Source: Escherichia coli
GTDB taxonomy: Bacteria > Pseudomonadota > Gammaproteobacteria > Enterobacterales > Enterobacteriaceae
NCBI RefSeq assembly: GCF_003991155.1
Contig: NZ_CP031293.1
Strand: one strand, 5' to 3'
Length of the DNA: 64,000 nt
In this document: in pieces, positions 3,680 to 63,728 of the stretch
Layout of the letters: every line of letters starts with the position of its first letter
Numbering within the stretch: position 1 is the stretch's first letter
The notes under the pieces: model-generated
The model's database searches: none
What the model saw: the letters and a program-made list of their open reading frames with translations, nothing else
What the model was told of the DNA's origin: nothing
Position numbers and translations under genes: made by a program

Positions 3680-5830
3680 ATGGATACTAAAAAGATATTC
3701 AAGCACATACCCTGGGTGATTCTCGGAATCATCGGTGCATTCTGCCTCGCGGTAGTTGCATTACGTCGGGGGGAGCACGTCAGTGCCCTGTGGATCGTGG
3801 TCGCCTCTGTGTCGGTGTATCTGGTGGCTTATCGCTACTACAGTCTGTACATCGCCCAGAAGGTGATGAAACTCGACCCCACGCGCGCGACGCCTGCGGT
3901 TATTAACAACGACGGTCTGAACTATGTTCCGACCAACCGTTACGTGTTGTTTGGTCACCACTTCGCCGCTATCGCCGGTGCTGGTCCGCTGGTTGGTCCG
4001 GTTCTCGCCGCGCAGATGGGCTACCTGCCTGGCACGCTGTGGCTGCTGGCGGGGGTAGTGCTGGCCGGTGCGGTACAGGACTTTATGGTGCTGTTTATCT
4101 CCTCTCGCCGTAACGGCGCATCTCTCGGTGAGATGATCAAAGAAGAGATGGGACCAGTACCGGGGACTATCGCGCTGTTTGGCTGTTTCTTAATCATGAT
4201 CATCATCCTTGCCGTCCTGGCGCTGATTGTGGTTAAAGCCCTGGCCGAAAGTCCGTGGGGTGTCTTCACCGTTTGCTCAACCGTACCGATTGCGCTGTTT
4301 ATGGGTATCTACATGCGCTTTATTCGTCCGGGGCGTGTGGGTGAAGTCTCTGTCATTGGTATCGTGCTGCTGGTTGCCTCTATCTACTTCGGTGGCGTGA
4401 TTGCTCACGATCCGTACTGGGGTCCGGCACTGACCTTTAAAGACACCACCATTACCTTCGCGCTGATTGGCTATGCGTTTGTTTCCGCACTGCTGCCAGT
4501 GTGGCTGATCCTCGCACCGCGCGACTATCTGGCAACCTTCCTGAAAATCGGCGTTATCGTCGGCCTGGCGCTGGGTATCGTGGTGTTGAACCCGGAACTG
4601 AAAATGCCTGCGATGACCCAGTACATTGACGGTACTGGCCCGCTGTGGAAAGGCGCTCTGTTCCCGTTCCTGTTCATCACCATCGCCTGTGGTGCGGTAT
4701 CTGGCTTCCACGCGCTGATCTCTTCCGGTACGACGCCGAAACTGCTGGCTAACGAAACCGACGCGCGTTTCATCGGCTACGGCGCAATGCTGATGGAATC
4801 CTTCGTGGCGATTATGGCGCTGGTTGCTGCGTCCATCATCGAACCGGGTCTTTACTTCGCGATGAACACCCCGCCTGCTGGCCTTGGCATCACCATGCCT
4901 AACCTGCATGAAATGGGTGGCGAGAACGCGCCGATCATCATGGCGCAGCTGAAAGACGTTACCGCACACGCGGCAGCGACCGTCAGCTCCTGGGGCTTCG
5001 TGATTTCGCCAGAGCAGATCCTGCAAACCGCGAAAGACATTGGTGAGCCTTCTGTCCTGAACCGTGCAGGTGGTGCGCCGACGCTGGCGGTAGGTATCGC
5101 TCACGTGTTCCACAAAGTGCTGCCGATGGCTGACATGGGCTTCTGGTATCACTTCGGTATTCTGTTCGAAGCCCTGTTCATCCTGACCGCGCTGGATGCG
5201 GGTACCCGTTCTGGTCGCTTTATGCTTCAAGACCTGCTGGGTAACTTCATCCCGTTCCTGAAAAAAACCGACTCTCTGGTTGCCGGTATCATCGGTACTG
5301 CGGGCTGTGTGGGTCTGTGGGGCTACCTGCTGTATCAGGGCGTGGTCGATCCGCTGGGCGGCGTTAAGAGCCTGTGGCCGCTGTTCGGTATCTCCAACCA
5401 GATGCTGGCAGCCGTAGCGCTGGTACTGGGCACCGTTGTGCTGATTAAGATGAAGCGCACCCAATACATCTGGGTAACTGTTGTTCCGGCTGTATGGCTG
5501 CTTATCTGCACCACCTGGGCGCTGGGCCTGAAACTGTTCAGCACCAACCCGCAGATGGAAGGCTTCTTCTACATGGCAAGCCAGTACAAAGAGAAGATTG
5601 CTAACGGTACTGACCTGACGGCACAGCAGATTGCCAACATGAACCACATCGTTGTGAACAACTACACCAACGCAGGTCTGAGTATTCTGTTCCTGATTGT
5701 GGTGTACAGCATCATCTTCTACGGTTTCAAAACCTGGCTGAAGGTGCGTAACAGCGACAAACGTACTGACAAAGAAACTCCGTACGTTCCAATCCCGGAA
5801 GGCGGCGTGAAGATCTCTTCGCACCACTAA
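3680..5830 (+). CDS. btsT: Pyruvate/H+ symporter, CstA family
   Basis: 716 aa from ATG at 3680 (MDTKKIFKHIPWVILG...); multi-pass membrane protein sequence recognised as BtsT/YjiY; ORF track 3665..5830. Confidence 0.9.
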   Translation: MDTKKIFKHIPWVILGIIGAFCLAVVALRRGEHVSALWIVVASVSVYLVAYRYYSLYIAQKVMKLDPTRATPAVINNDGLNYVPTNRYVLFGHHFAAIAGAGPLVGPVLAAQMGYLPGTLWLLAGVVLAGAVQDFMVLFISSRRNGASLGEMIKEEMGPVPGTIALFGCFLIMIIILAVLALIVVKALAESPWGVFTVCSTVPIALFMGIYMRFIRPGRVGEVSVIGIVLLVASIYFGGVIAHDPYWGPALTFKDTTITFALIGYAFVSALLPVWLILAPRDYLATFLKIGVIVGLALGIVVLNPELKMPAMTQYIDGTGPLWKGALFPFLFITIACGAVSGFHALISSGTTPKLLANETDARFIGYGAMLMESFVAIMALVAASIIEPGLYFAMNTPPAGLGITMPNLHEMGGENAPIIMAQLKDVTAHAAATVSSWGFVISPEQILQTAKDIGEPSVLNRAGGAPTLAVGIAHVFHKVLPMADMGFWYHFGILFEALFILTALDAGTRSGRFMLQDLLGNFIPFLKKTDSLVAGIIGTAGCVGLWGYLLYQGVVDPLGGVKSLWPLFGISNQMLAAVALVLGTVVLIKMKRTQYIWVTVVPAVWLLICTTWALGLKLFSTNPQMEGFFYMASQYKEKIANGTDLTAQQIANMNHIVVNNYTNAGLSILFLIVVYSIIFYGFKTWLKVRNSDKRTDKETPYVPIPEGGVKISSHH

Positions 5831-6093: not shown

Positions 6094-7050
6094 ATGAACC
6101 CGATTGCAGTTACCCTACTCACCGGTTTTTTAGGCGCGGGCAAAACTACCCTGCTGCGCCATATTCTTAACGAACAGCACGGCTACAAGATTGCCGTGAT
6201 TGAAAACGAATTCGGCGAAGTCTCCGTTGATGATCAACTGATTGGCGACCGCGCCACGCAGATCAAAACGCTGACCAACGGCTGCATCTGCTGTTCGCGC
6301 TCCAACGAGCTGGAAGACGCACTACTCGACCTGCTGGATAATCTCGACAAGGGCAATATTCAGTTCGACCGTCTGGTCATTGAATGCACCGGCATGGCCG
6401 ATCCCGGCCCGATTATTCAGACCTTTTTCTCCCATGAGATTTTATGCCAGCGCTACCTGCTGGACGGCGTGATTGCGCTGGTGGATGCGGTACATGCCGA
6501 TGAGCAGATGAACCAGTTCACCATCGCCCAGTCACAGGTTGGCTACGCCGACCGTATTCTGCTGACTAAAACCGACGTCGCAGGCGAAGCAGAAAAACTG
6601 CGTGAACGCCTGGCGCGCATCAACGCCCGTGCACCGATCTACACCGTCACCCACGGCGACATCGACCTGGGCCTGCTGTTCAACACCAACGGTTTTATGC
6701 TGGAAGAGAACGTCGTCAGCACCAAACCGCGTTTCCACTTTATCGCGGACAAACAAAACGATATTTCGTCGATTGTGGTGGAACTGGATTACCCGGTAGA
6801 TATCAGCGAAGTTTCCCGCGTGATGGAAAACCTGCTGCTGGAGTCGGCGGATAAACTACTGCGTTACAAAGGGATGCTATGGATTGACGGCGAACCTAAT
6901 CGCCTGCTGTTCCAGGGCGTCCAACGCCTCTACAGCGCCGACTGGGACCGCCCGTGGGGCGATGAAACACCGCATAGCACAATGGTGTTTATCGGGATTC
7001 AGCTGCCGGAGGATGAGATTCGGGCGGCGTTTGCGGGGTTGAGGAAGTAA
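6094..7050 (+). CDS. yjiA: CobW/P47K-family GTPase YjiA
   Basis: ATG at 6094 gives 318 aa MNPIAVTLLTGFLGAGKTTLL... with GTP-binding P-loop and CxCC motif; ORF track 6010..7050 extends upstream in frame. Confidence 0.85.
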   Translation: MNPIAVTLLTGFLGAGKTTLLRHILNEQHGYKIAVIENEFGEVSVDDQLIGDRATQIKTLTNGCICCSRSNELEDALLDLLDNLDKGNIQFDRLVIECTGMADPGPIIQTFFSHEILCQRYLLDGVIALVDAVHADEQMNQFTIAQSQVGYADRILLTKTDVAGEAEKLRERLARINARAPIYTVTHGDIDLGLLFNTNGFMLEENVVSTKPRFHFIADKQNDISSIVVELDYPVDISEVSRVMENLLLESADKLLRYKGMLWIDGEPNRLLFQGVQRLYSADWDRPWGDETPHSTMVFIGIQLPEDEIRAAFAGLRK

Positions 7051-7083
7051 TTTTGGATGATGGCCGCCATGTGGCGGCCTGAA

Positions 7084-7386
7084 TTATTTTTTGTTCTGAT
7101 CGCGCAGCATCGCTTCACGTAAAATTGCGTTCAGGCGAGTTTGATAGCCTTTACCTGGTCGCTTCAACCATTCCATCACATCAGAATCAATACGCACCGA
7201 GGCCTGAGTTTTCAATGGCCGATAAAACTTACCGCGTTCTGCGTTAGACCATTGCTCATCGCTGGAAGGTGGGATATCACTGTAATCAATATCTTCGTCG
7301 GATTTATTCGCCAGCGCCTTCAGTTCGGCCTCATGCTGCACATCGAGTGTAGAGGAGGTCCCTCGTTTATGTTTAACCATGCTCAT
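7084..7386 (-). CDS. BrnA-like antitoxin (ribbon-helix-helix type)
   Basis: ATG at 7386 (MSMVKHKRGTSSTLD...); downstream of and overlapping the BrnT-like gene by 14 bp in the toxin-first order typical of brnTA. Confidence 0.6.
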   Translation of the reverse strand: MSMVKHKRGTSSTLDVQHEAELKALANKSDEDIDYSDIPPSSDEQWSNAERGKFYRPLKTQASVRIDSDVMEWLKRPGKGYQTRLNAILREAMLRDQNKK

Positions 7387-7654
7387 AGCGATTCCTCTCT
7401 TTACGATCTGCTTTTCGTGCACTGATGATTCGAATAATTTCATTTCCGCTTTCGAAACGGATGGTATGCGCAACCAGAATAACCACGATGCCGTAAACCA
7501 GGCCGATTGTCTGCCAGCGATACTCACCGTTTTCTATGCGTTCTTGCTGTGACAAATGTTGTGGATCATCAAACACTAACACCGCATCTTCAAAGCGGAT
7601 GCCATGTTTCACCCGATTACTTTTGGCCTTGTTTGCATCCCATTCAAACTCCAT
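7373..7654 (-). CDS. BrnT-like toxin (DUF497 ribonuclease toxin family)
   Basis: Translation MEFEWDANKAKSNRVKHGIRFEDA... matches the conserved N-terminal signature of BrnT/DUF497 toxins; start taken at ATG 7654 (in-frame alternatives at 7660 and 7669). Confidence 0.65.
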   Translation of the reverse strand: MEFEWDANKAKSNRVKHGIRFEDAVLVFDDPQHLSQQERIENGEYRWQTIGLVYGIVVILVAHTIRFESGNEIIRIISARKADRKERNRYEHG

Positions 7655-7856
7655 TGGCATAGTTGCCATCCCTAATTGTATATACAAAAATGTATCTACA
7701 ATTATTCTGCAATTATAGCGTTGATGTTGGAAATAGCATCACGTTTTGGATAATCAACCATGAAATTGACAATGAGTGAGTTGGACTTGATTCATCCAAT
7801 AGAATTTCTCGCCTGACATGGCACACTAAACACCTCGCTGTCGTTAAGGGATTACC

Positions 7857-9023
7857 GTGAAAAACTACAAAGTCATTACCCCGCTTTTTCCTACCTATGC
7901 GCAAGTTAAGGCTATGATGAAAGCCGTCTCAGGCTATTCCCTGAAAGCGGTGCGCAATATGATTACTGCCATTCACGAGCAAACCGGTACGCCGCAAAAA
8001 CCCGTTGACTGGTCAGAACCCGACCTGTGGATCAGCGAGCGCTTAACGGGTGAAGATGCCGACATCGCCCGTCGTATTTGGGATACCGATAATCACATCT
8101 TGAACCCGCGCCACAGCTACGGCTGCTACTTATTCCTCAACTATCCCCAGTTTGAGCTGATGGAAAGCACACCAGATGATATCTGGCAGCCCACCTCGCG
8201 CGGGCAAAAATTCCTGCAAGATGACGAAAAAACGCTGCGTTCACTGGACGACCAGGAAGGCATTCTGCAACTGCTTGAGCTGCTGGCTGGCCGGGAAATG
8301 TCGCGCCGCGCCGATTTATTGCCGGAATGGCAGGCCTTTTTGCATCAGCATTCGAAATTCGCGTCAGCAAGTTCAGTGAAAAGCACGCTCTACTCCCGTC
8401 TCTATAACCTTATCGACCGTGACATGGTTAACCGTGAAGGCATGAGCTATCGCATCACCGATACCGGGCGCGCCTGGCTTGGAAAAGCGTTGCCAGCACG
8501 AAAAAGCGATCCGCGTAAAGAGCTGTTGGAAGCGGTAAAACGCTATAACGAACAGCAAAAAGAGCTGCTGCGCGAACAAATCAGCACGATGAACCCGTAC
8601 AAATTTGAGCAACTGGTTGGTCAATTACTGGAAGCAATGGGCTACGAGCAGGTCGAAGTGACCAAAGCCTCAGGCGACAAAGGTGTGGACGTGATTGGTC
8701 AGGTGCAGGTCGGCATCACCACTATTACCGAAGTGGTGCAGGTCAAAAGAATGCAGAACACTATCACTCGCCCGTATATCGACCAGTTGCGCGGGGCGTT
8801 GCCTTACCACAAAGCCATTCGCGGTACGCTCATCACCACCGGGAAATTTGCGGCGAAATGTGCAGAAGCGGCGCTCTTTCCGGGTGCCGCGCCCATTACG
8901 CTTATCGACGGCGATCGTTTACTGGAACTGTTAATCGAAAATAACGTCGGCATTCGCCGCAGCAATGCAGTGGAATTGCTGGATGTGGATTTGCAGTTGT
9001 TTGATGAGCTGGAGATGGATTAA
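7857..9023 (+). CDS. Mrr-family (type IV-like) restriction endonuclease with extended N-terminal region
   Basis: C-terminal ~130 aa carry the Mrr catalytic core (GDKGVDVIG ... EVVQVKR ... LITTGKF ... LIDGDRL); winged-helix-like segment (SYRITDTGRAWL) upstream; start codon uncertain (GTG 7857 or internal ATG). Confidence 0.65.
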   Translation: MKNYKVITPLFPTYAQVKAMMKAVSGYSLKAVRNMITAIHEQTGTPQKPVDWSEPDLWISERLTGEDADIARRIWDTDNHILNPRHSYGCYLFLNYPQFELMESTPDDIWQPTSRGQKFLQDDEKTLRSLDDQEGILQLLELLAGREMSRRADLLPEWQAFLHQHSKFASASSVKSTLYSRLYNLIDRDMVNREGMSYRITDTGRAWLGKALPARKSDPRKELLEAVKRYNEQQKELLREQISTMNPYKFEQLVGQLLEAMGYEQVEVTKASGDKGVDVIGQVQVGITTITEVVQVKRMQNTITRPYIDQLRGALPYHKAIRGTLITTGKFAAKCAEAALFPGAAPITLIDGDRLLELLIENNVGIRRSNAVELLDVDLQLFDELEMD

Positions 9024-9067: not shown

Positions 9068-9244
9068 GTGGTCAAAGCACCAACTAAAAAAGCCAAAGCA
9101 AAGAAAAGCTCTGAAGAAACATTATGTGATACCACAAACCAATTTCGTGGTAGCGTTGAGTCCTCCGAATACAAGCACGTGGTGTTAAGCCTCGTGCTCC
9201 AGAAACTCATCAGCGATAAGTTTGAAGCACGCCGCAAAAAATGA
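9068..9244 (+). pseudogene. Truncated 5' fragment of a type I R-M methyltransferase gene (hsdM N-terminal domain only)
   Basis: Reading frame VVKAPTKKAKAKKSSEETLCDTTNQFRGSVESSEYKHVVLSLVLQKLISDKFEARRKK-stop; the SEYKHVV...ISD motif is the hallmark of HsdM N-terminal domains; frame ends after 58 codons. Confidence 0.55.
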
Positions 9245-9903
9245 TTGCCGAAGCGTTAAAAGCTGATGGGATGGAAGAAATTTATTTTTCTGGCGACAAA
9301 AAAGCGGAATCTATCGATATTTTTGACGAAGATTATCTGGCGCGAATTAACAAGATCAAACTTCCAGCAACGAAGATCCTGTTATTACAAAAATTACTGG
9401 AAAAAGCGATCAGCGAGTTCAGGAAAGTGAACCAGTTGCAAGGGATTAACTTCACCCGCCGCTTCCAGGCGATTATAGATCGTTATAATGAGCGGCGAGA
9501 AGATGATGTACTCAACGGTGAAGAATTCGATACATTCAGTCAGGAAATGATTGATATTATCTATGATATTAAAACCGAAATGGGCACCTGGGCCGATTTA
9601 GGCATTGATATTGAAGAAAAAGCCTTTTTCGACATTCTTGCTCATATGCGCGATAAATATCAGTTCACCTATGACGATGAAAAAATGCTGTCACTGGCAA
9701 AAGAGATGAAAAGCGTTGTTGACAACACATCGAAATATCCTGACTGGAGTAAACGCGATGATATTAAAGCGAAACTGAAAGTTGAACTTATTCTGCTTCT
9801 ACACAAGCATAAGTTCCCGCCAGTAGCGAATGATGATGTTTATATGGGTGTGCTGGCACAGGCAGAGAATTTTAAAGAACATCATATGAGTGCTTTAAAT
9901 TAA
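9241..9903 (+). pseudogene. 3' fragment of a type I R-M restriction subunit gene (hsdR C-terminal DUF3387-like domain)
   Basis: 220-aa ORF with EEKAFFDIL ... DWSKRDDIKAKLKVELILLLHKHKFPP, the conserved C-terminal domain pattern of HsdR; no helicase or nuclease domains upstream; begins in a different frame immediately at the stop of the hsdM fragment. Confidence 0.6.
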
Positions 9904-10040: not shown

Positions 10041-10047
10041 GTATTTA

Positions 10048-10124
10048 GCGCGGTGCGAATGTGCGCCAACACACCCGCACCGCTCATCACAATCCCTATT
10101 TCACGAGAATAGTAATCATGACTG
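10048..10124 (-). ncRNA. symR: SymR-like cis-antisense sRNA overlapping the symE 5' end (position inferred)
   Basis: By analogy with K-12 symE/symR; a TAGAAT -10-like hexamer lies on the minus strand just inside the symE coding start. Exact ends not determinable from sequence alone. Confidence 0.35.
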
Positions 10125-10456
10125 ACACGCATTCTATTGCACAACCGTTCGAAGCAGAAGTCTCCCCGGCAAATAACCGTCAATTAACCGTGAGTTATGC
10201 GAGCCGCTACCCGGATTACAGCCGTATTCCCGCCATCACCCTGAAAGGTCAGTGGCTGGAAACCGCCGGTTTTGCTACCGGCACGGCGGTAGATGTCAAA
10301 GTGATGGAAGGCTGTATTGTCCTCACCGCCCAACCACCCGCCGCCGAAGAGAGCGAACTGATGCAGTCACTGCGCCAGGTGTGCAAGCTGTCGGCGCGTA
10401 AACAAAGGCAGGTGCAGGATTTTATTGGGGTGATTAGTAGCAAAACGCCACGCTAA
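10118..10456 (+). CDS. symE: SOS-induced toxin-like protein SymE
   Basis: ATG at 10118: [48 protein letters not shown]... recognised as SymE (YjiW). Confidence 0.85.
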
Positions 10457-12493: not shown

Positions 12494-13450
12494 TTAGTAC
12501 TCGATCCATGGATCGCGCTTGCTTTCAGGCAAGGGCTGATCTAATGCCTGCATTTGCTCTGCCGAAAGTCCGGTATATCGTTGTATCCATTCAGGATCCG
12601 CCCCATTCTGCAACAACAATCGGAGGAGGCTCTTTTCCCCTTCTTCTTTCCCTTCTTTCCTCCCCCTCTCCCTTCCCAACAGCCATCCATCATTATGAAT
12701 TCGCTCTGCAATCGTCATTATTCGCTCCCTGTGTTGTGGCATTCGACGGATAAGTTCGCTGATAAACTCATTAAAACGCGCTTCATCGCCAGTCAGTAAA
12801 ATGTAATTTAACAGCGCGGTTATCTGGCTGTCATTAGCGCACCCTGTAACCAGTAATACTGCCAGTTGATCAATAAGCCCCATTAGATCGCGCTGGCGAA
12901 TATGCTTTTGGATCAACTCCAGCAGGGCGACTCTGCGATGCTGCACAATCTCGTCGTCTGGCACGACAGTGACATCCACCAGCGGGAACGCTGCGGTATA
13001 AAGCTTCCGTGCGGTAGCCGGGTCGGCAAATTCATCCAGCCAGCACAAAGACCAGGGGTAAGGACTACGGCTACCGTGATAAAACAGCATCGGGATGACC
13101 AGCGGTAGCGGCCGGCGTTTATCATGCTCGATATGGCGCTGCATCACCGCCATGGAATATCGCATCAGGCGAAAGGCCATATGGATATCCTCGCGGCTCT
13201 GATGTTCAATCACCACATAAATATAGCCATCTCCTTCGCGGGTCTTTACCGACCACAGAATATCGGAATGTAGCGCCCGCAATTTTTCATCGACAAAGCT
13301 GGCGTATTCCAGTTTTAAGCTGTCGAGATCGCACAGTTCACGTAAATCTTTGGGTAAGTGGATCTCCATAAAATCCCGCGCGGTGTCAGGGTGGGTGAGA
13401 AAAGATTTAAATAATGCGTCATGCGGCGTGCTGGTCGTGAAGTTTGTCAT
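12494..13450 (-). CDS. rpnD: Rpn-family recombination-promoting nuclease (PD-(D/E)xK, transposase_31-like)
   Basis: 318-aa intact ORF with Rpn/YhgA-like N-terminus ([26 protein letters not shown]). Confidence 0.75.
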
Positions 13451-46684: not shown

Positions 46685-48418
46685 ATGGAAATCATATTAC
46701 CAAAAAACACCTTATATGACAGAGAGCAAAATGTCTTTTTTGAAAAGGTTACGGCCTTAATTGGCGAAAATGGTGCTGGTAAGTCCTCGATTTTACAATC
46801 CGTATTTATTAACTGTTTAACAAAAAAATATCTACCAGAAACAAAGGTTGTTTGTTTTTCTTCTGGACAAAATGAGAAATACTCAACGTACTTCTCTGAT
46901 TATCTTTCTCATGAAAGGCAAGCAAATAGAGGTCTTAACTTAGATTGTTGTTATTACGATAAATCATGGTCAAAGTTACTAATATTCATATCCACAATTT
47001 GTAAATCAAATGGTCTTGTTAGAAATTTTTTATGTGAGAAAGGCTATATTGATGTATCAGATGATAAAAATGATGATATATCAAGCAAGCTTACATTGAC
47101 GGTCCGAGTAAATTCGGCTTACGTTAATCGAGTAAAAATGGCATTAGCACAAGAAGAACAAGGTATTGAAAATACTTTAAGGTATTCAGCTTATCATAGG
47201 ACTTTAGAAAGTTTCATTAATAATATTGTTAATGCTGATTATGATTTCGAGTCTCCACTTGAAGCTCAAGAGATCTTGCTAACTCATTCAAATTTTTTCA
47301 ATCCATCATTTGAGGAAGCAGAAGATTCCTTTTTTGATCCTATCATAACATTTTTCACTCAAGCAGCAGATAATGATTACTTTATAATAAAACCATCATT
47401 ACAGCTAGAGTTTAAAAATAATATCGAACTGAATGATATTAGTGATGGGGAATATCAAGTACTCTTTTTATACTCTCTGCTTGATATTTTTGATAGTCCT
47501 AATACTTTATTCTTATTAGATGAGATAGATTCCCATTTACATTACAAGAATATTGAGCTCTTATGGCATCGACTACATAGTATTAATGGTTATGCGATAA
47601 CAACCACCCATCTATTAGACTCAATTACAGCTACTGATAATGATTTTAAAAACTTAAAGATTGTTGATAAAGGAAAAATAAAAGAAGATGATAAAATAAA
47701 AACTATAATAGAACGTTTATCTGTCTTGACAAGAATATCAGACGTACAGTTCGAAGTGTGTCGTAAACTAGAAAACATAGTATTGATGGATGATTATAAT
47801 GATTGGACTATTTTTTATGCCTTAGCAAAGAAAAAAGGACTTGATGTATCAAAGTTAGATGGCCTCCATGCAATAAAACAGTCCTCTGGTTACGATAATT
47901 TAAATCAAGAGTTCGCAAAACCAAAAATAGAGTGGATTAATTCGCTTTTAAATGTAAATACTGATAAAAAAGTCAAAAGAATATTCATGATCTGCGACAA
48001 AGATGAGGCTCCAATTACCTATCAGAAAGATGGAGTTCAAGTCAATGGAAGTGAATATTCAAAACATATAGCGAAGTTAGAAAATAAAAACAAAAATAAA
48101 ATATATCTCCTTGCATGGAAAAGAAGAGAAATAAAAAACTACTTACTATCTTATACGGCATTGTCCCATCATGGATTTATCGAGCAAATAAACAATGGAG
48201 ATCTGCCAGCTAACAGTTATTTAAAAGAAAACGATCCTGGAGATAATTCAGCAATTAGCCGGCTTAACGTAAAACATTGCATCACAAAAATAATTGATTC
48301 TGATGGTATAGGATTAGATATATCAAAACTTTACTCATATATAGAACTTATACCACCTGCTGAGATCAGTGAAGATATAGTGAACATGTACAATTTTTTG
48401 GTGGAGAAATTAAAATGA
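46685..48418 (+). CDS. OLD/PARIS-like ABC-type ATPase (AAA_15/21-like) with C-terminal Toprim-like (RloB/DUF4435-like) domain
   Basis: 577 aa; Walker A LIGENGAGKSSIL, Walker B/D-loop LFLLDEIDSHLH, C-terminal DxD-type motif IFMICDKDE; very AT-rich coding sequence; stop overlaps the next gene's start (ATGA). Confidence 0.6.
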   Translation: MEIILPKNTLYDREQNVFFEKVTALIGENGAGKSSILQSVFINCLTKKYLPETKVVCFSSGQNEKYSTYFSDYLSHERQANRGLNLDCCYYDKSWSKLLIFISTICKSNGLVRNFLCEKGYIDVSDDKNDDISSKLTLTVRVNSAYVNRVKMALAQEEQGIENTLRYSAYHRTLESFINNIVNADYDFESPLEAQEILLTHSNFFNPSFEEAEDSFFDPIITFFTQAADNDYFIIKPSLQLEFKNNIELNDISDGEYQVLFLYSLLDIFDSPNTLFLLDEIDSHLHYKNIELLWHRLHSINGYAITTTHLLDSITATDNDFKNLKIVDKGKIKEDDKIKTIIERLSVLTRISDVQFEVCRKLENIVLMDDYNDWTIFYALAKKKGLDVSKLDGLHAIKQSSGYDNLNQEFAKPKIEWINSLLNVNTDKKVKRIFMICDKDEAPITYQKDGVQVNGSEYSKHIAKLENKNKNKIYLLAWKRREIKNYLLSYTALSHHGFIEQINNGDLPANSYLKENDPGDNSAISRLNVKHCITKIIDSDGIGLDISKLYSYIELIPPAEISEDIVNMYNFLVEKLK

Positions 48419-50322
48419 ACACCTCTTTATTTGAAGATCTACTTACACTAATCAAGAAAAAGAGTTCGATAAGGAATACAGAACAAGCAGTAGAGTTAAT
48501 TTCATTATTTATTTTTTTACATTATATAAAATTATATCTTTATGAAAATGATAAAAGATTTTCAGATATAAAAAACATATCAAGCAACAACATTAATGAA
48601 ATTAAATATTATTATCAGCAACTATATGAAAGTTTTATTTTCTCGATAGATATAAAAAATATAAACCACGACATGCTTGAAAAGCTCAGGAGTAAGATAG
48701 GTTTTTTAATTAATAACATCAATGACCATGAAATAATTAAATATATAGATTATTCTATTTCGCAGATACATTCACTTACAGAATTCTATCAATATGCAAA
48801 TTCTTATCAATCTTTAATTCTTAGGATGGTTAATGAATCGGGTCGTTCAGGTGAATATGTTACTCCATCTGCTTTAGTTCAGCTCATGGTTGAAATGTTA
48901 TCACCTACAGATGGCACATCAATCTACGACCCCGCATGTGGAACTGGGGGTTTATTAATAGAGTCAGCACGATATATTAAAGGCAACAGTTTAAACAAAA
49001 ACTTAAATTTAAATTATTCCCTTATTGGTAATGACACATCATCATTTGCCTGTCTAATCTCAATTGTTAACCTTTTAATCAATAAAGAATTTAATTTTGA
49101 AATAATACTAAAAGATAGCTTAGATATAAATTATAAGAATACAAAATATGACTTTATTTTAACTAACCCACCATTTGGGAAAAAGAGCGGTTGGGATAAT
49201 ATTCATATTGACACACATTATAAAGGACCTAATCTAGACTATTACTTCCTGGAGCATGTTATTGACTCTCTCGCTGTTAATGGCAAAGCAGCCATAATAT
49301 TACCAGAGCGTTTTTTATATGATGTGAGTAAAGAGTGCATCACTCTTAAAGATAAGATCTTCCAAAATTATAATTTAGATTGTATTTTATCTATACCGTC
49401 AGGTGCATTGCTTCCTTACACTGCAGTAAAATTATGTATTCTTTTTATAAGTAATCCTGGCCCAACAGATAGAATATTTTTCTACAATTTAAATAATGGT
49501 GAAAAATACTCACGTACAAATATTATAAAATTCGATGATTTTATAGATTTTTTAGAGTCAGCAAAAAATAGAACAATAACTGAACACTCCTGGATTATCA
49601 ATATTAGTGATACACCTTCATCTTATAACTTACTCTTAAAAGATAAAGAGCGAAACTCATATGAGTTTCTTAGTGATTCTATAGTTAACATTGAACAGAC
49701 AATACGTAATAATGAATTATTACTAACAGAGTTGTCTTTATTAAGAGAAAAAATAGCAATCTTAGAGTCAACAATAAAAAATCATTCGCATGAATATGAA
49801 TTTGAGAGACTTAAAGTTGGAAATATTGCAATAGTAAAATCCGGAAATTTATTACAAAAAAACAGGCTGTTACCCACTGGACCAATTCCTGTATACGGTG
49901 GAAATGGAGTTATTGGATATAACAATGAGGCAATGGTAAATGGTGAAAATATTATTATTGGTAAGGTCGGAGCTCTTTGCGGAAACGTTCGGTATGTTCA
50001 AGGTGATATTTGGGTGACAAATAACTCATTAATTATTAAGAATTATTTACCAAATAAAGTTTTAACACCCTACCTTGCAAAGTTATTATCTACTTTAAAC
50101 TTAAGAAAGCTCGCCGTTGGTACCGCTCAACAATATTTAACCACAACACAAATAAAAAATGTAGAAATTAGCATTCCACCTTTAACGACCCAGCATAAAT
50201 TAAATATGTGGCTTGATGAGTTAGATAATACCCTTGAACAATATAATAAGCTCATTGAAAAAATAATGAATGATAAGCGAGAACTTAAAGAGAATTTGTA
50301 TAAAGGTCTTTTAATAGAATAG
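48415..50322 (+). CDS. HsdM-like N6-adenine DNA methyltransferase fused to one HsdS-type target-recognition domain (M-S fusion)
   Basis: 635 aa; motif X EYVTP, motif I DPACGTGG, motif IV TNPPFG; C-terminal ~180 aa resemble a single TRD plus HsdS conserved helix (KVGNIAIVKSGN ... VTNNSLIIKN ... TTQHKLNMWLDELD); AT-rich; translationally coupled to the upstream gene. Confidence 0.7.
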   Translation: MNTSLFEDLLTLIKKKSSIRNTEQAVELISLFIFLHYIKLYLYENDKRFSDIKNISSNNINEIKYYYQQLYESFIFSIDIKNINHDMLEKLRSKIGFLINNINDHEIIKYIDYSISQIHSLTEFYQYANSYQSLILRMVNESGRSGEYVTPSALVQLMVEMLSPTDGTSIYDPACGTGGLLIESARYIKGNSLNKNLNLNYSLIGNDTSSFACLISIVNLLINKEFNFEIILKDSLDINYKNTKYDFILTNPPFGKKSGWDNIHIDTHYKGPNLDYYFLEHVIDSLAVNGKAAIILPERFLYDVSKECITLKDKIFQNYNLDCILSIPSGALLPYTAVKLCILFISNPGPTDRIFFYNLNNGEKYSRTNIIKFDDFIDFLESAKNRTITEHSWIINISDTPSSYNLLLKDKERNSYEFLSDSIVNIEQTIRNNELLLTELSLLREKIAILESTIKNHSHEYEFERLKVGNIAIVKSGNLLQKNRLLPTGPIPVYGGNGVIGYNNEAMVNGENIIIGKVGALCGNVRYVQGDIWVTNNSLIIKNYLPNKVLTPYLAKLLSTLNLRKLAVGTAQQYLTTTQIKNVEISIPPLTTQHKLNMWLDELDNTLEQYNKLIEKIMNDKRELKENLYKGLLIE

Positions 50323-50330
50323 ATCACAAT

Positions 50331-50357
50331 AGCAGGGTGTCCATAAAACACCCTGCT
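50331..50357. terminator. Hairpin between the convergent M-S fusion gene and hsdR
   Basis: AGCAGGGTG-TCCATAAAA-CACCCTGCT stem-loop. Confidence 0.45.
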
Positions 50358-50402
50358 ACTGGTTGCAAGTAAGTTGCAATATCTGTACTGCTGAAGCTAC
50401 TA

Positions 50403-53400
50403 TTAATAATGCTCCTCAATATACCCATACGCCTTCTGGAACAACTCTTTATCTTTCCCTAGTCCAAACTGGGCCAAGGTCAGTAAAAGCGCCTTTTGGA
50501 TTTCGCGCGGGCCACTGTTGGAATTTTGCCAGCCATCAAAGCGGGTAGCTTTCACAATTTTATCAATTTGCTCTACAACATCACCGATTAACTTAGGGGT
50601 AGTTTCCGGACGTGTTTCGAGGAAAAGCTTAGTCAACGCCTGTTTATTATCAGCTTCAGTTACTGGGCGCTCGCCCGTTTCGCGCTCGGCTTGAACGGTA
50701 TCTTTCGCTGCATCCAACAGGCCTTTCAACCAGTCAATGGCCTTGATAACACCAGCTTCATAGTCCTGACGCAGTTTTTCAAGGCGCTCGCCCAATGCCA
50801 CAAATTTAGGATCATGACTGCCGCGCAAACGTCCCATAAGATCAATCTCCAGGCGTTTGGCACGTTGTTCCTGCTCTTTAGCGGTCAGGGTAAAAATAGC
50901 GTGCTCGTCCATAACCAACTCGTCAATATCATCGCGAATACGATTGATATCAGTATGCTCATGGATCATCTTGATTGTTTCGGGGCCAAGGGCAGCCCAA
51001 ACAAGCGCACCTGTCTGCCCTACCGGACGCACCGATTCATAAATTTGCGCCAGCCATTTATAGTCCTGACGATAAGAGGTCAAAAAAGGATCTGGGTTGA
51101 TAGCTGACCATAACTTGGATAACACACCAAAGCTGGCAGCGAATTCATCGCGTTTCTCGTTGGTCGGCAGGCATTCCTGCGCGGCCATAATACCTTCAAA
51201 ACCAGCTATGGACCGATCCACACCAGGGAAGAAGGACAAACATTTATTCAGTTGTAACGGCAATAGCTCTTTAAATGCCTCAATTCCCTCTACAACTCCT
51301 TCAATTTCTTCAGGGTTATAGGCCAGAGCGGTACGCAGATTTTCGAAAACGCCGAGGTAGTCGATAATTAATCCCATGTCCTTGCGTACAGTATCGGTTT
51401 CGTACAACCGGTTGGTTCGGCACATGGCCTGAAGAAGAGTATGATCGCGTAGAGGCTTATCGAGGTACATGCAGTAGCAAATCGGGGCATCAAAACCCGT
51501 AAGCAGCTTGGCGGTTACGATAATAAGCTGTAATGGATGTTCAGGATCTTTAAAGCATTCAATCAGATCCTTTTGCACCTGTTCTTCGGCATCAATGTGC
51601 TGCCAGCGTTCAAAATCGACTTGTTTGACTGGCAGCTCCAACTCATCATGCCATTTAAGCCAATCCTTGTTGAGCTTGTCTTTTTTGCCACCCTCTTCAA
51701 CTTTAACCGGAGCCTGGTCAACGTTCATAACCACTTCAACCGCATCAAAACCAAGCTTTTCACCGAGCAAATAATACATCTGCACACAGGCTTCGCGATC
51801 GTATACCACAACCATGCCTTTCATCTTTTTCGGCATAACATGGTTGGTAAAATGCTCAGCAATATCATTACTCACCGCAGCCATACGCCTAGGGGATTTC
51901 AGCATGATTGCCAGCTTGCCTGCACGCCTGGACAATGCTGCTTTTTCTTCTTCATCCAGGTTGTTTTCGGTAGCCAGTTGCTCGAACTCTTCATTGATGG
52001 CATCACGATCCACTCGGAGTTCAGCCAGCCGAGGTTCGAACTTCACCGGGTTAGTTGCGCCATCCCGGATCGACTGCTTATAGCTATAGCGGCTCATATA
52101 GCGACCTGGATCTTCTTCGGCACCGAACAATTTGAACGTATTACGATCAATGCCAGAAATCGGAGTACCAGTCAGGCCATAGAAGTGGGCATTGGGCAAC
52201 GCCCAGCGCATTTTCTCGCCTAATCCCCCTTCCTGTGTACGGTGAGCTTCGTCAACCAACACAATGATATTGTCCCGGTTGTTCAGGCCATTAGGGTTGC
52301 TATCGTCAATTTCGATATCTTTAAATTTAAAGATGGTGGTGATTAAAATGCCACGGCTGTCTTGTTCTATGTATTCACCCAACTTTTTGCAGCTTTGCAC
52401 TTTAATCAGATTCTTAACGTCGGCTCCGCCAAAGGTCTCGTTAATTTGGCTGTCCAGATCTCGCCGGTCCACAACGATAAGTACCGTCGGGTTTTTTAAC
52501 GCATTATCGGCACGTAGCATTTTGGCGGCGTAAAGCATCAACAAGGATTTACCCGATCCCTGGAAATGCCAAATAAGACCTTTTTTTGGATAGCCTCTGC
52601 GAACACGCTCAACAATTTGTTTTGCAGCTTCAAATTGCGGATAACGCGGCAGGATTTTAACGCGTTTAGGTGGAGTATTTTTGCCCGTTTTGACGGTTGA
52701 AAATAATGCAAAAGATTCAAGTAACTGCAATAAGGTTTGTGGATTTAACAAACTCTCACAGCTGTTGAGTACCGATGCTAATCCCGGCAGAATTTCATCA
52801 CGAAGCTCAGTATTATGCCAGGGCCCCCAGTCTTTAACTCTGGCATTAATGGCACCATAGGCAAAGGTTTTTCCTTCGCTGGCAAAGCACAGCAAGTTAG
52901 GTACAAAGAAAGATTCAACATTTTTCCAGTAGTACTTTTTGCCACCCATGAAATCGGCAGCACCGTCTTGCCAGGTCACGCTGGGGCGTGTTGCGGTTTT
53001 AACTTCGCCCACTACTAGCGGTATGCCGTTCACATAAAGAACAATATCAAAATAGACTTCAGTGGCCGCGATATAGCGAACCTGCTGCGCCACCACAAAG
53101 TGGTTGTTCTCTATATTGTCAAAATCAATCAGATTGATGGTGATATGGTCGCCATTCTTACCAAAAGGCAAGGTTTTGTCGGCCATCAACCATTCCTGGA
53201 AGTTTTCATTGGCCTTTACCAAGCCGGTATGGCGGGCTTCTAAAACCACTCCTCGCAGTTTGTAAATGACCTCATCGGCATAGTCAGGCTGTCTGCCGAT
53301 ATCAGGGTTTAACGAACAAAGCGCGTCTTTTAGCCACTCATCAACGAAGATATCCTGCGCTTGTTTAGGCAGGTTTTCACCGTGGCAGTAAGTCCACTTG

Positions 53401-53465
53401 ACTCCGCTTAAACCTTTTAAACGGTCGATAATTCCATTTTCTGTGACGGTTTGTTCGTTAAACAA
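50403..53465 (-). CDS. hsdR: Type I restriction enzyme R subunit
   Basis: 1020 aa; SF2 helicase motifs (GSGKSLLMLYAA Walker A, VLVDEAHRTQ DEAH box); last gene of a tightly packed four-gene operon. Confidence 0.9.
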   Translation of the reverse strand: MFNEQTVTENGIIDRLKGLSGVKWTYCHGENLPKQAQDIFVDEWLKDALCSLNPDIGRQPDYADEVIYKLRGVVLEARHTGLVKANENFQEWLMADKTLPFGKNGDHITINLIDFDNIENNHFVVAQQVRYIAATEVYFDIVLYVNGIPLVVGEVKTATRPSVTWQDGAADFMGGKKYYWKNVESFFVPNLLCFASEGKTFAYGAINARVKDWGPWHNTELRDEILPGLASVLNSCESLLNPQTLLQLLESFALFSTVKTGKNTPPKRVKILPRYPQFEAAKQIVERVRRGYPKKGLIWHFQGSGKSLLMLYAAKMLRADNALKNPTVLIVVDRRDLDSQINETFGGADVKNLIKVQSCKKLGEYIEQDSRGILITTIFKFKDIEIDDSNPNGLNNRDNIIVLVDEAHRTQEGGLGEKMRWALPNAHFYGLTGTPISGIDRNTFKLFGAEEDPGRYMSRYSYKQSIRDGATNPVKFEPRLAELRVDRDAINEEFEQLATENNLDEEEKAALSRRAGKLAIMLKSPRRMAAVSNDIAEHFTNHVMPKKMKGMVVVYDREACVQMYYLLGEKLGFDAVEVVMNVDQAPVKVEEGGKKDKLNKDWLKWHDELELPVKQVDFERWQHIDAEEQVQKDLIECFKDPEHPLQLIIVTAKLLTGFDAPICYCMYLDKPLRDHTLLQAMCRTNRLYETDTVRKDMGLIIDYLGVFENLRTALAYNPEEIEGVVEGIEAFKELLPLQLNKCLSFFPGVDRSIAGFEGIMAAQECLPTNEKRDEFAASFGVLSKLWSAINPDPFLTSYRQDYKWLAQIYESVRPVGQTGALVWAALGPETIKMIHEHTDINRIRDDIDELVMDEHAIFTLTAKEQEQRAKRLEIDLMGRLRGSHDPKFVALGERLEKLRQDYEAGVIKAIDWLKGLLDAAKDTVQAERETGERPVTEADNKQALTKLFLETRPETTPKLIGDVVEQIDKIVKATRFDGWQNSNSGPREIQKALLLTLAQFGLGKDKELFQKAYGYIEEHY

Positions 53466-53466
53466 T

Positions 53467-54633
53467 TTATTGTCCCCTCAGAAGAATATTCAAATAACTG
53501 GACTTGAGTTTACGAATTTTTTGAAGCCTTGATTTAGCTTCTCTATAACTGTTTTCGGCTAAATGTAATATATCCTTATATTTCCCAAGCTCTCTTGATG
53601 GTGGTATAACCATCTTCTGAGAATGTACATCGGCATCATTAACAGCCGGGAAACTTGTACCAACTGCCAAATTGGTTAATGAATAAGTGAATTGCTTCGA
53701 CAAAGTGAAATAATAAATAAAATCGGACAAATCATTTTTTGCCCTTAGAACAGTAAAACCTGTTGATGCTATTGAATCATTCAATATTTCAGACACATAA
53801 AACGTAGCTCTATGATTGGGTCTAACAGTGCTAACAACAATATCTTTTTCCTTAAGAATACGCCGAGCTCGGCTGGGGGCTTCAGCGAAATGGTATTCTT
53901 TAGGAGTATCGACAAAACCAGGAAAAGTCACTGAAGATATATCTATATACCTAATCAGCTTATTTTTATTGGCATCATTACTTAACAAGTCAAAATTAAT
54001 ATTTGATACATCCTTCAATCTAACTTTGTTATATCCAAATGGCAGTTTTTCTTTTCGATCAAATGTAGTCAACCGATCAATTAATCTTTGAAATAAATTT
54101 AATGCAGACCTTTCAGTCTCATTTGCACAATGTAATACTTGTTCGATTTTTTTTAAAGAATTTAAAAAATCAACTTGCAGATCCATTTCAGGAATAATAA
54201 ATTCCTGCTGACTTAAAACTTTCCATTTTATCGTTGGAGACAATGACCCCTCCGAAATTGCTACTGCACGATTCATGAAAGTATCAGACTGCATAATAAA
54301 GGGTAAAAACTCAGGTATTACAGTATTTGAATTTGCCTCCAGAACCATGGCATGAGCCGAACAGATACAATCCCAATCTGCTACCGCGACTTTACGTTGA
54401 TAAGCACGACGCTTACCAAAAATAATCTGGCCTTTTTTCACTAAAAGCTTCTGCCCTTCAACGTCACTGGGTGTACCATGACGTTTGATTTTCAGGCTGT
54501 CAGGGTCTAAATGCTCCAAACCGACATAAATTTCAAGGTCTGTCTCGCTCGGTTCCACTCGTTTAGAGATATGTTTAGCGATATCGCCAAACTTCACCAT
54601 TTGCCAGCCTTCAGGTAATTGCTGTTCTGTCAT
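53467..54633 (-). CDS. hsdS: Type I R-M specificity subunit (two TRDs)
   Basis: 388 aa with two TRD-like halves separated by a conserved central region; AT-rich; abuts hsdM2 and hsdR. Confidence 0.85.
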   Translation of the reverse strand: MTEQQLPEGWQMVKFGDIAKHISKRVEPSETDLEIYVGLEHLDPDSLKIKRHGTPSDVEGQKLLVKKGQIIFGKRRAYQRKVAVADWDCICSAHAMVLEANSNTVIPEFLPFIMQSDTFMNRAVAISEGSLSPTIKWKVLSQQEFIIPEMDLQVDFLNSLKKIEQVLHCANETERSALNLFQRLIDRLTTFDRKEKLPFGYNKVRLKDVSNINFDLLSNDANKNKLIRYIDISSVTFPGFVDTPKEYHFAEAPSRARRILKEKDIVVSTVRPNHRATFYVSEILNDSIASTGFTVLRAKNDLSDFIYYFTLSKQFTYSLTNLAVGTSFPAVNDADVHSQKMVIPPSRELGKYKDILHLAENSYREAKSRLQKIRKLKSSYLNILLRGQ

Positions 54634-56133
54634 TTACTGCTCCACCTTGCTTTCAACGTTATATCCAAGCTCTGCAAGGCTCTGGAATAATTTATTAGTT
54701 TGCTTTTTCAACTGAGTACGGCTTACTTTCCACGCTTCAATCGCATGTTCAATATTATGTACTTCAGCGTTGTTTTGTGCTTGCACATACAGTGGAATTG
54801 AAAGGTTATAAAGGTTTTCTTTAATAGCTTCAATATTCACTAAAGAGGTTATATCGTTTTTTTTCTCCGGATTAAAATAAGCCTCGCATAATACCTCCAA
54901 ATCCTCATCGGATAAGCGACTATGAGCGCGTTCACGGGTAACATGCTCAACCCCGTTGATAAATAACACTTTATTTTTGCGTTCGGCAGGTTTATTGCAA
55001 TTAAGCACCACCACACAAGATTCCATCGGCGAGTTATAAAACAGATTTGGTCCCAAACCAATCACCGCTTCAATAATGTCCGATTCAATCACCTGTTTAC
55101 GAATGGCCTGCTCAGAATCACGGAACAGCACACCGTGTGGCCAGAGCATAGCAGCACGACCGGTATCGGGTTTTAAACTTTTAATTATATGGGTATAAAA
55201 AGCATAATCAGCGCAGCCCTGCGGTGGGACACCATAAAGATTTCGACCATACGGATCAGCAGCAAACTTGTCACGATTCCATTTTTTAATGGAGTACGGT
55301 GGGTTGGCAAAAATCACATCAAACTGCTTGAGCCGATCGTTTTCAATAAACTTTGGCTCAGCCAAAGTATCACCACGCAGCACATCAAACTCTTCAATAT
55401 CGTGCAGGAACATATTCATACGGGCGATTGCGGATGTCAGCAGGTTCACTTCCTGACCATAAAGGTGCACAGAGCGCCACTCTTCCCCTCTAGCACGCAG
55501 ATCCATCACTGCATTTAGCAACATCCCACCTGTGCCACACGTTGGATCATAGGCGGTTTCACCCGGTTTTAAGCCCATAATGCGCGTCATTAAATGCACG
55601 ACTGTTCGGTTGGTGTAGAACTCTGCTGCCGTATGACCGGAATCATCAGCGAACTTTTTAATCAGGTATTCGTAGGCCTCACCAAGATCATCCTGAGCGA
55701 CAGATTTAATGCCTAGCGGAATTTGACTGAAATGTTCAATCAGATCAGCCAGCAGATGATCGGGCAGGCGCTCTTTATTGGTCCACTGCGCATCACCGAA
55801 GACGCCATGTAAACGCGGATTATTGGCTTCAATTAGTCGAAGCGCATTCTGGATCGCTTCACCAATGTTTTTACTGGTATTGCGTACCTTTTCCCAACTG
55901 GCTTCAGAGGGAATGTTGAAACGGTGAAACATCGGCATGGCGGCATATTCAGCATCACCTTCATGGAGTTCCAGCGCTTCGTTATATTCTTCCAGATAGA
56001 CATCTGACAGGCGTTTGTAAAACAGCAACGGGAAGATATACTGCTTGTAGTCTGATGCGTCAATTTGGCCACGAAGAAATTCGGCGGCTCCCCAGAGCAG
56101 CTCTTCCAGCTTTTTATTACTCATAGTACTCAT
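54634..56133 (-). CDS. hsdM: Type I R-M methyltransferase subunit, paralogue 2 (motif X variant FYTNR)
   Basis: 499 aa; HsdM_N (DASDYKQYIFPLLFYKRLSDVY), DPTCGTGG, ANPPYS; start overlaps the stop of the upstream hsdM paralogue (ATGA). Confidence 0.85.
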   Translation of the reverse strand: MSTMSNKKLEELLWGAAEFLRGQIDASDYKQYIFPLLFYKRLSDVYLEEYNEALELHEGDAEYAAMPMFHRFNIPSEASWEKVRNTSKNIGEAIQNALRLIEANNPRLHGVFGDAQWTNKERLPDHLLADLIEHFSQIPLGIKSVAQDDLGEAYEYLIKKFADDSGHTAAEFYTNRTVVHLMTRIMGLKPGETAYDPTCGTGGMLLNAVMDLRARGEEWRSVHLYGQEVNLLTSAIARMNMFLHDIEEFDVLRGDTLAEPKFIENDRLKQFDVIFANPPYSIKKWNRDKFAADPYGRNLYGVPPQGCADYAFYTHIIKSLKPDTGRAAMLWPHGVLFRDSEQAIRKQVIESDIIEAVIGLGPNLFYNSPMESCVVVLNCNKPAERKNKVLFINGVEHVTRERAHSRLSDEDLEVLCEAYFNPEKKNDITSLVNIEAIKENLYNLSIPLYVQAQNNAEVHNIEHAIEAWKVSRTQLKKQTNKLFQSLAELGYNVESKVEQ

Positions 56134-57629: not shown

Positions 57630-57872
57630 TGTTGTCTCTTTTCGATCCTGCAGTGCTTGAACTCTCAGCAACTCATGGATTTCACAGTAAAAAAGCAAGT
57701 AAAGCGATTCCACAACCACCTGAGCGTTCAATATGTATGACGCCTTTACCCAAGTTGCTTAAATCAAGGAAATTGCCAGAGATAATACTCTGGCATCAGA
57801 ATGATACCAAGTTGAAGGGCTGATTTCCGCATCAATACCTTGTGGTAATAGGGGATTACTCTTTTACCCTTA

Positions 57873-58910: not shown

Positions 58911-59094
58911 TTTGCCATATCACAGTCGGGCATACTGCCCGATTTTTGTGCTGTCATTATTGGCAATATCTCAATAGGCGTTGAGAAATGGTGCAATTTA
59001 ATCTTGCCAGAGCGCTGTTACTTGGGGACGAAATTAATGGGCTCCTGCTGTAGTTACAGCAACGCCTGTAAATACAAAAATAGGCGTTGCAAAT

Positions 59095-60150: not shown

Positions 60151-60212
60151 TCCATTCAGCCACCTTATCCAGGGGAAAAACACCGATAAGATGGCTAATC
60201 AAAATGTCTGTT

Positions 60213-63200: not shown

Positions 63201-63728
63201 TTGACGCCACTCCTGCTGCAAGGCTGCATATCGTGCTTCCCGTTCTTCATCCGTTTCGGCAGTCTTATCAATGCTGTCATCAAAGTTGATAGAGAACGAG
63301 GTATGGATTGTCTTGTATTTGTCATACTGCCCAATATCACCAATCGAAAATGCTCCTTTTGGCAAAGGTTCAAGCAGGTCTCTGGGAATGGAGGTCGCTG
63401 GCGTCGGATATAAAAAACCCTCACGGCTTAGCAAGGCTGGCGTCACTAGCGGGGTAACAATATCAGGTGCGCCTGCGGAACGGTCCTTACCATGCTGCAG
63501 TAACCGAAAATAAACTTTTGGGCGCAAGACGACATCGACCGTTTCGACATCGTCTTTTTCTCCCTCAAAAAATTTACTGACAATCGCTTCGTCAAGACGT
63601 CCCGCCGCTATCCCATGCCAGTGAGTGAAATTTTTGGCGTCTTTCCGTTCAAAACTGCCCTTTCCTGACTCAGCATCTGCAAGCGAGTTGCGCCAGTATG
63701 AGGCAAACCCTAAAGCATTTTCATCCAT
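60213..63728 (-). CDS. SF1 (Upf1/Dna2-like) helicase fused to C-terminal PLD-family nuclease; type II Mokosh-like
   Basis: 1171 aa; Walker [14 protein letters not shown], Walker [11 protein letters not shown], helicase C-terminal motifs ([17 protein letters not shown]), PLD HxK(x)4D motif [21 protein letters not shown]. Confidence 0.7.

Follow-up and report, generated by a model that had tools for sequence, protein, structure and literature searches.

Two small minus-strand open reading frames (ORFs) adjoin yjiA at the edge of the Escherichia coli "immigration control" defence island. The question which they raise is threefold: whether they form a type II toxin-antitoxin pair of the brnTA family, whether the pair was inserted at this position and whether it is tied to the restriction gene on its other side, all of which had been proposed or implied in an earlier note on this DNA. 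The window referred to below is the whole stretch of E. coli DNA that was analysed, 64,000 nucleotides in length, and the reverse complement of E. coli 2016C-3878 (NZ_CP029747.1, 299130-363129) differs from it by one mismatch in 64,000, at 33188. The features of the locus are as follows.

6094-7050, plus strand: yjiA, flanking gene
7062-7079, no strand assigned: G+C-rich hairpin GGCCGCC-ATGT-GGCGGCC, from a terminator scan
7084-7386, minus strand: brnA, antitoxin gene, 100 aa, Pfam BrnA_antitoxin
7373-7386, minus strand: 14-bp overlap of the brnT 3' end and the brnA 5' end
7373-7660, minus strand: brnT, toxin gene, 95 aa, of the RelE/BECR-superfamily family PF04365/DUF497 (Pfam, PDB match, RefSeq)
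7857-9023, plus strand: Mrr_cat-domain endonuclease gene, the other flanking gene

Layout of the locus

The gene order before the pair is btsT, yjiX and yjiA, followed by the two minus-strand ORFs and then by the plus-strand endonuclease gene, and the two flanking genes are those which the earlier note had described. The 14-bp overlap that it reported is present in the sequence, with the toxin ORF ending at 7373 and the antitoxin ORF running from 7386 to 7084, as is the toxin-first order (brnT 7660..7373 before brnA 7386..7084), and the identical arrangement is found in four genera. The pair has the architecture of brnTA loci, namely small genes on the same strand, with the toxin first and the two adjacent or overlapping. 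The GC content of brnTA is 0.43-0.49, slightly low compared with approximately 0.54 in the flanks.

The stop codons of the convergent yjiA and brnA genes are separated by a gap of 33 bp that contains the hairpin. A T-run accompanies the hairpin on the plus strand (the yjiA side) only, and it is therefore called as the terminator of yjiA. K-12 is without this hairpin and has a REP-like sequence after the yjiA stop codon. No RNA family was found by Rfam in the brnTA region. Further into the window, a 516-aa ORF lies antisense to btsT (4277-5827, minus strand); it is almost certainly an artefact of composition, arising opposite a long gene that is rich in G+C.

Identity of the pair

The pair is real, ordinary and already known: both genes have names in RefSeq, the PDB contains a near-identical complex from Salmonella, and brnAT appears in a 2025 review as a toxin-antitoxin system of the yjiA-yjiN immigration control region (PMC12707154). 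Its proposed membership of the brnTA family of type II pairs is borne out by Pfam, by PDB homologues, by RefSeq annotation and by this literature (PMC12707154), and the locus can be regarded with considerable confidence as a chromosomal BrnT/BrnA type II toxin-antitoxin operon on the minus strand, a standard BrnTA module. A scan of both proteins against NCBIfam returned no matches. Within the library that was searched, there was no experiment on this E. coli pair, and searches directed at Salmonella BrnT or STM4528/STM4529 found nothing on the pair. As a discovery brnTA is of little weight and its by-products are practical: a corrected brnT start codon at 7660, a well-supported candidate operator for BrnA and a picture of the locus across 5,426 E. 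coli genomes.

The toxin, BrnT

The earlier note had given the pair an extent of 7084-7654. The ORF positions and ends stand, but 7654 is the second in-frame ATG, and the toxin most likely begins at the ATG two codons before it, at 7660 (MPMEFEW..., 95 aa). This start is favoured because 7660 is preceded, at a distance of 8 nt, by an AGGGA Shine-Dalgarno sequence, because the orthologues are 95 aa in length and because Enterobacter orthologues begin with MPTEFEW, ACG replacing the second ATG. RefSeq also starts brnT at 7660.

The DUF497/BrnT signature which had been recognised in the toxin (MEFEWDANK...KHGI) is present, and the HMM search suggested as a check placed both proteins over the Pfam gathering scores (BrnT_toxin and BrnA_antitoxin). 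BrnT matches BrnT_toxin, PF04365 (formerly DUF497), with 85 bits against a cutoff of 34.5 (E = 4.6e-24) over profile positions 1-77 of 77, and its RefSeq product is 'BrnT family toxin' (WP_001131965.1). It is 86% identical to PDB entry 7VD7_A over the full length (E = 2.6e-52), and there is a weak match to the BrnT of Brucella, 3U97 (phmmer E = 0.0016). The AF2 model of BrnT (pLDDT 77) aligns with 7VD7_A at a TM of 0.74 in Foldseek; with this model as query, 7VD7 was retrieved and Brucella 3U97 was not, the latter being matched by sequence only. Strands at 46-55, 58-68 and 74-83 and helices at 9-19 and 86-94 give the model a predicted RelE/BECR-like fold, with a central antiparallel beta-sheet and short helices.

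The residues Asp6, Glu7, Lys9, Arg41 and Glu78 are reported to be important for the RNase activity of Brucella BrnT (PMC5086665, reviewing Heaton et al. 2012), and work on an Acidovorax homologue has added a Lys-His pair and a C-terminal Glu to the important residues (PMC10714953). In an alignment of 13 enterobacterial sequences with Brucella BrnT, W7, D8, K11, K18-H19-G20, R48 and K87-E88-R89 are invariant. Four of the five Brucella RNase residues are therefore kept (D6, K9, R41 and E78 correspond to D8, K11, R48 and E88 in the 95-aa numbering), as is the KHG motif, whose importance was seen in the Acidovorax homologue. The equivalent of Brucella Glu7 is Ala9 here, and Ala, Thr or Glu across the clade. 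With dN/dS of 0.03-0.05 across genera for brnT and of 0.03-0.06 over both genes, sequence comparison indicates that brnT and brnA are both under strong purifying selection. By homology with the Brucella, Acidovorax and Salmonella proteins, BrnT would be expected to be a ribonuclease that inhibits growth.

The antitoxin, BrnA

BrnA matches BrnA_antitoxin, PF14384, with 62.7 bits against a cutoff of 26.1 (E = 4.2e-17) over profile positions 1-68 of 68; this family is a large one, matched by 3,816 representative clusters at E <= 1e-3. The RefSeq product is 'BrnA antitoxin family protein' (WP_000063158.1). Residues 14-57 match 7VD7_B, the 44-residue antitoxin fragment that was co-crystallised with the toxin (E = 1.3e-16), which supports the view, by homology, that residues ~14-57 are the segment through which BrnA would bind and neutralise BrnT. 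Residues ~58-100 form a nearly invariant ribbon-helix-helix (RHH)-like DNA-binding domain, the C-terminal RHH domain of BrnA antitoxins. Across E. coli, Salmonella, Enterobacter and Klebsiella the C-terminal 44 residues are nearly invariant, and the N-terminal half varies. The Shine-Dalgarno sequence of brnA, GAGAGGA (7399-7393), lies inside brnT, suggesting that translation of brnA is coupled to that of brnT.

Putative promoter and operator

Upstream of brnT, three further features are distinguished.

7661-7843, minus strand: upstream block with the promoter and operator region, which accompanies brnTA in every E. coli carrier irrespective of the sequence beyond it
7673-7704, no strand assigned: 14-nt inverted repeat, placed after the -10 box and before the Shine-Dalgarno sequence of brnT; putative operator for BrnA/BrnTA
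7712-7717, minus strand: perfect -10 hexamer, TATAAT, belonging to the putative promoter of brnTA

On the coding strand the order is TATAAT (7717-7712), the inverted repeat (7704-7673), AGGGA (7673-7669) and the ATG at 7660. Salmonella likewise has TATAAT as its -10 hexamer, Klebsiella has TATTAT, and the -35 element, GTGATG, approximately 19 nt upstream of the hexamer, is weak, which accounts for a consensus sigma-70 scanner calling no minus-strand promoter at brnTA. The one element on which the putative promoter is placed is the conserved TATAAT box.

The inverted repeat, found by a repeat search, reads TAATTGTAGATACA tttt TGTATATACAATTA on the coding strand, with 93% complementarity and a 4-nt spacer, and the half-sites of the putative operator are TGTATATACA. 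When the 196-bp intergenic region was shuffled 2,000 times with its dinucleotides preserved, a repeat this strong occurred in only 3 of the shuffles, and 500 shuffles of the 901-bp region gave none. In an alignment that includes the loci of Salmonella, Enterobacter and Klebsiella, the block TTGTATATACA-N5-TGTATATACAA hardly varies, and the sequence further upstream cannot be aligned. The core TTGTATATACAA also lies directly upstream of the plasmid-borne brnT of K. aerogenes p35_E and Xenorhabdus XD_p, at 66-67% coding identity. Since it is kept in four genera and in plasmid-borne relatives, the repeat at 7673-7704 is probably the operator of BrnA, and the joint conservation of the palindrome and of the BrnA DNA-binding domain fits autoregulation. 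The upstream block has a sharp outer limit in part of the population, approximately 1,100 genomes matching only positions 3-183 of a query beginning at 7661 and then diverging into IS1.

Residence or insertion in the yji region

The pair had been described as inserted between yjiA and the endonuclease gene. Homology with K-12 extends precisely to the stop codon of yjiA, which places the pair in the variable interval; beyond yjiA, K-12 has the REP-like sequence and then the convergent mrr gene, 46 bp away. A pair at the same position is, nevertheless, found in Salmonella, where the order tsr-btsT-yjiX-yjiA / brnA-brnT / mrr-hsdR-hsdM is the K-12 arrangement plus brnTA, and pairs occupy the same yji neighbourhood in Klebsiella, adjoining yjiR-yjiS, and in Enterobacter, adjoining yjiN, which is the region's other anchor gene. 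The 14-bp overlap is common to the Salmonella, Enterobacter and Klebsiella loci. Because orthologous pairs are placed in this way, the simplest reading is that the pair has long been resident in the yji region and is absent from some lineages, including K-12, and a recent insertion is less likely. At the nucleotide level, brnT and brnA are 79% identical between E. coli and Salmonella, compared with 85-91% for yjiA, yjiX and btsT. Dating of the pair by synonymous divergence was rejected, as pS is saturated (0.64-0.82) in all genus pairs.

Distribution in E. coli genomes

In a survey of 5,426 complete E. coli genomes, brnTA sequence was carried by 2,112 (39%), always in single copy and on the chromosome, and 3,314 genomes were without the pair. 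At a coverage of at least 80%, the body of brnA is present in 2,110 of the 2,112 carriers and the central part of brnT in 1,780 genomes. Expressed over all 5,426 genomes, 33% have an intact pair, ~4% a toxin-specific deletion and ~2% brnA only, and 61% are without the pair.

Two structural forms of toxin loss were recognised. A 158-bp internal deletion of brnT (~7400-7557) is present in approximately 224 genomes, a figure derived from counts, and in the examples inspected brnA, the promoter and the endonuclease are intact. In approximately 108 genomes homology ends near 7435 inside brnT and is followed by Fic and GmrSD genes; in the variant inspected brnA is intact, and everything beyond codon ~75 of brnT is replaced. 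The corresponding positions in the inspected loci are 3304-3420 in L002 and L004, for window 7400-7557, and 3304-3440 in L003, for window 7435. L004, the sole inspected example with a shorter upstream region, has an additional 11-bp deletion touching the operator. Overall, brnT is lost or truncated with brnA kept in approximately 330 genomes and essentially no genome shows the reverse, these being structural losses scored by coverage. Such an asymmetry is what a live toxin predicts, although it may represent as few as two structural events that were inherited clonally.

The neighbours of the pair vary in the same collection. The PDC-S02 endonuclease, which is the neighbour in the window, lies beside the pair in only 879 of approximately 2,000 carriers. 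In 1,113 of the 5,426 genomes, an IS1 begins 183 nt upstream of brnT, mdtM-yjiN comes immediately after it and restriction genes are absent; the IS1 junction sequence is identical in all 1,113, and may thus reflect one inherited event. These counts show that the pair does not depend on the neighbouring restriction gene. They do not bear out the tie between the two that the earlier note had implied, and a functional link of the pair to the adjacent endonuclease was rejected on these neighbour statistics.

In loci of the IS1 type, exemplified by L017 (NZ_AP021893.1, 5422-7046, corresponding to window 7084-7843), brnTA is the sole occupant of the island that remains. In strain DAX4 (L006, NZ_CP126343.1, 3001-3085), an unannotated 85-bp relic with 81% identity to the middle of brnA lies between yjiA and IS1, and looks like a much older, decayed copy. 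Within a plasmid collection, near-identical copies were found in records of 655-834 kb and in one 22-kb record, and these 'plasmid' copies are probably chromosomal segments; more distant brnTA relatives occur on small enterobacterial plasmids and on many Acinetobacter plasmids. Two matches in a phage collection were mislabelled Salmonella chromosome contigs, leaving no real phage copy.

Proposed mechanism and possible roles

The mechanism proposed for the pair is modelled by homology in all of its steps. A promoter with the perfect -10 box (7717-7712) would give rise to a bicistronic mRNA, from which brnT would be translated first, with brnA translationally coupled to it via the 14-bp overlap. 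BrnT would act as a small RelE/BECR-fold ribonuclease, its degradation of RNA leading to translation arrest, and would be neutralised by the N-terminal and middle segment of BrnA (residues ~14-57) wrapping around it. BrnA would dimerise through its C-terminal ribbon-helix-helix domain, and either BrnA alone or BrnT2-BrnA2 would bind the palindromic operator at 7673-7704, which would overlap the expected transcription start, predicted near 7705, and so repress the operon. On depletion of the antitoxin, presumed to be the more labile partner, free BrnT would stop growth.

Of the roles that such a module might have, that of a selfish addiction module of no benefit to the host can be advanced only tentatively. 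Deletions that remove brnA would kill the cell while BrnT remains, so that the pair would persist at the yjiA edge and, as a side effect, would limit the reach of island deletions. The pair has stayed in the 1,113 genomes in which the IS1-associated deletion took the island up to 183 nt from brnT, brnA alone is essentially never lost when brnT has been lost in approximately 330 genomes, and family relatives reside on small plasmids, all of which is in keeping with addiction. On the other hand, the one IS1 junction sequence shared by the 1,113 genomes may stem from a single inherited event and not from repeated selection, the 3,314 of 5,426 genomes without the pair imply that it can be lost, and strong purifying selection on the toxin across genera also fits a benefit to the host.

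A main role in abortive-infection phage defence, or in joint work with the neighbouring restriction genes, would explain the place of the pair in the immigration control region, where it lies in the yjiA-yjiN defence island beside the PDC-S02 endonuclease, type I restriction-modification remnants and symE/symR. Toxin-antitoxin pairs are counted among the occupants of defence islands in reviews, with brnAT named in this region (PMC12707154), and other RelE-superfamily toxins act in defence (PMC11980606). Such a role is nonetheless unlikely. In a scan of PADLOC-DB v2 at E <= 0.01, the neighbouring endonuclease alone found a match and neither BrnT nor BrnA did so, and a literature search for anti-phage activity of BrnTA found none. 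Moreover, the pair is kept by 1,113 E. coli genomes in which its neighbourhood has no restriction gene, the neighbours within 6 kb in Enterobacter and Klebsiella include no restriction genes, and the usual reading of related pairs on small plasmids is maintenance. The evidence found favours neither the addiction nor the abortive-infection explanation.

It is similarly doubtful that brnTA is a conserved edge module that either limits island deletions by post-segregational killing or acts in abortive infection independently of restriction. If true, this would explain why brnTA alone survives in the 1,113 restriction-stripped genomes, with a deletion that reaches to 183 nt from the start, and why the toxin is sometimes lost and the antitoxin alone is not. 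Least credible, and very improbable, is an attenuated or domesticated pair in which BrnT has lost catalysis via replacement of the Glu7 equivalent by Ala and BrnA is chiefly a small transcription factor of the RHH type: conservation fails at one of the five Brucella RNase residues and an intact orphan brnA is present in approximately 330 genomes, but brnT has a dN/dS of 0.03-0.05 with the other catalytic residues invariant, the 86%-identical Salmonella protein, also with Ala there, was crystallised as a 'toxin' with its antitoxin, and the toxin-specific deletions suggest that an intact toxin has a cost. With the corrected start codon, the candidate operator and the population picture, the pair offers a convenient natural system in which to ask whether chromosomal toxin-antitoxin modules stabilise the defence islands that they border or simply outlast them.

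The remainder of the island and of the window

The endonuclease gene at 7857-9023 encodes a protein of 388 aa with a C-terminal Mrr_cat domain and a full-length match to the PADLOC candidate family PDC-S02 (E = 2e-207). It is not an orthologue of K-12 Mrr, which is 304 aa in length and encoded in the opposite orientation. Beyond it, a 58-aa N-terminal fragment of HsdM (9068-9244) runs straight into a 220-aa C-terminal fragment of HsdR (9241-9903); the two (9068-9903) are what an internal deletion has left of a type I restriction-modification system, and both are pseudogenes in RefSeq. In other strains an intact hsdM follows the same endonuclease. The symE gene (10118-10456, plus strand), 2.5 kb from brnTA, forms a type I toxin-antitoxin system with the antisense RNA symR (10047-10123, minus strand; Rfam RF01809, 88.9 bits), and a gene for an Rpn-family nuclease is located at ~12494-13450. 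The window therefore holds all three toxin-antitoxin systems that have been named for the immigration control region in review (PMC12707154).

A second cluster of defence-type genes, according to RefSeq annotation, lies beyond nanS at ~46685-63728. It encodes an AAA ATPase together with an N-6 DNA methylase, a type I system in which S and R accompany two M genes, a protein with a TIR domain, a restriction endonuclease and a 1,171-aa protein with an AAA domain.

Comparison with known systems

The closest known system is that of PDB entry 7VD7, 'Toxin-Antitoxin complex from Salmonella enterica serovar Typhimurium', which was released on 2022-09-14; the paper describing it was not found in the library that was searched. 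The Salmonella pair is an orthologue of the present one, the toxins being 86% identical and the antitoxins ~75-80% identical over residues 14-57. As here, it lies between yjiA and restriction genes, has a 14-bp overlap and the same operator palindrome, and encodes a toxin with Ala at the Glu7-equivalent position. The two loci differ in their neighbours, which are a K-12-type Mrr and intact hsdRM in Salmonella and the PDC-S02 endonuclease and hsd remnants here.

The BrnT/BrnA pair of Brucella abortus (Heaton et al. 2012; PDB 3U97) is the founding member of PF04365/PF14384 and shares with the E. coli pair the same Pfam families, a toxin-first operon and a C-terminal RHH antitoxin. It is reported to form a 2:2 complex and to autorepress its own promoter (PMC5086665, PMC10714953, PMC11980606). 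The Brucella toxin is, however, only 34% identical to the toxin described here, in which Glu7 is replaced by Ala, and the enterobacterial toxin has insertions relative to it at residues ~31-35 and ~65-68.

Within the immigration control region, symE/symR and rpn have been grouped with brnAT (PMC12707154). They share the island with brnTA but have unrelated mechanisms: in symE/symR, a type I system, the antitoxin is an RNA, and in Rpn, a nuclease, it is internal.

Finally, plasmid-borne brnTA pairs, such as those of K. aerogenes p35_E and Xenorhabdus XD_p, are found in the Enterobacterales and Acinetobacter, where they are annotated as BrnT/BrnA and have the same gene order. The enterobacterial plasmid-borne pairs also carry the TTGTATATACAA palindrome just upstream of brnT, as here, although nucleotide identity with the present pair is only 66-71%. 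They reside on small non-mobilizable or mobilizable plasmids, for which a role in maintenance is expected, whereas the pair described here is chromosomal and syntenic across genera.
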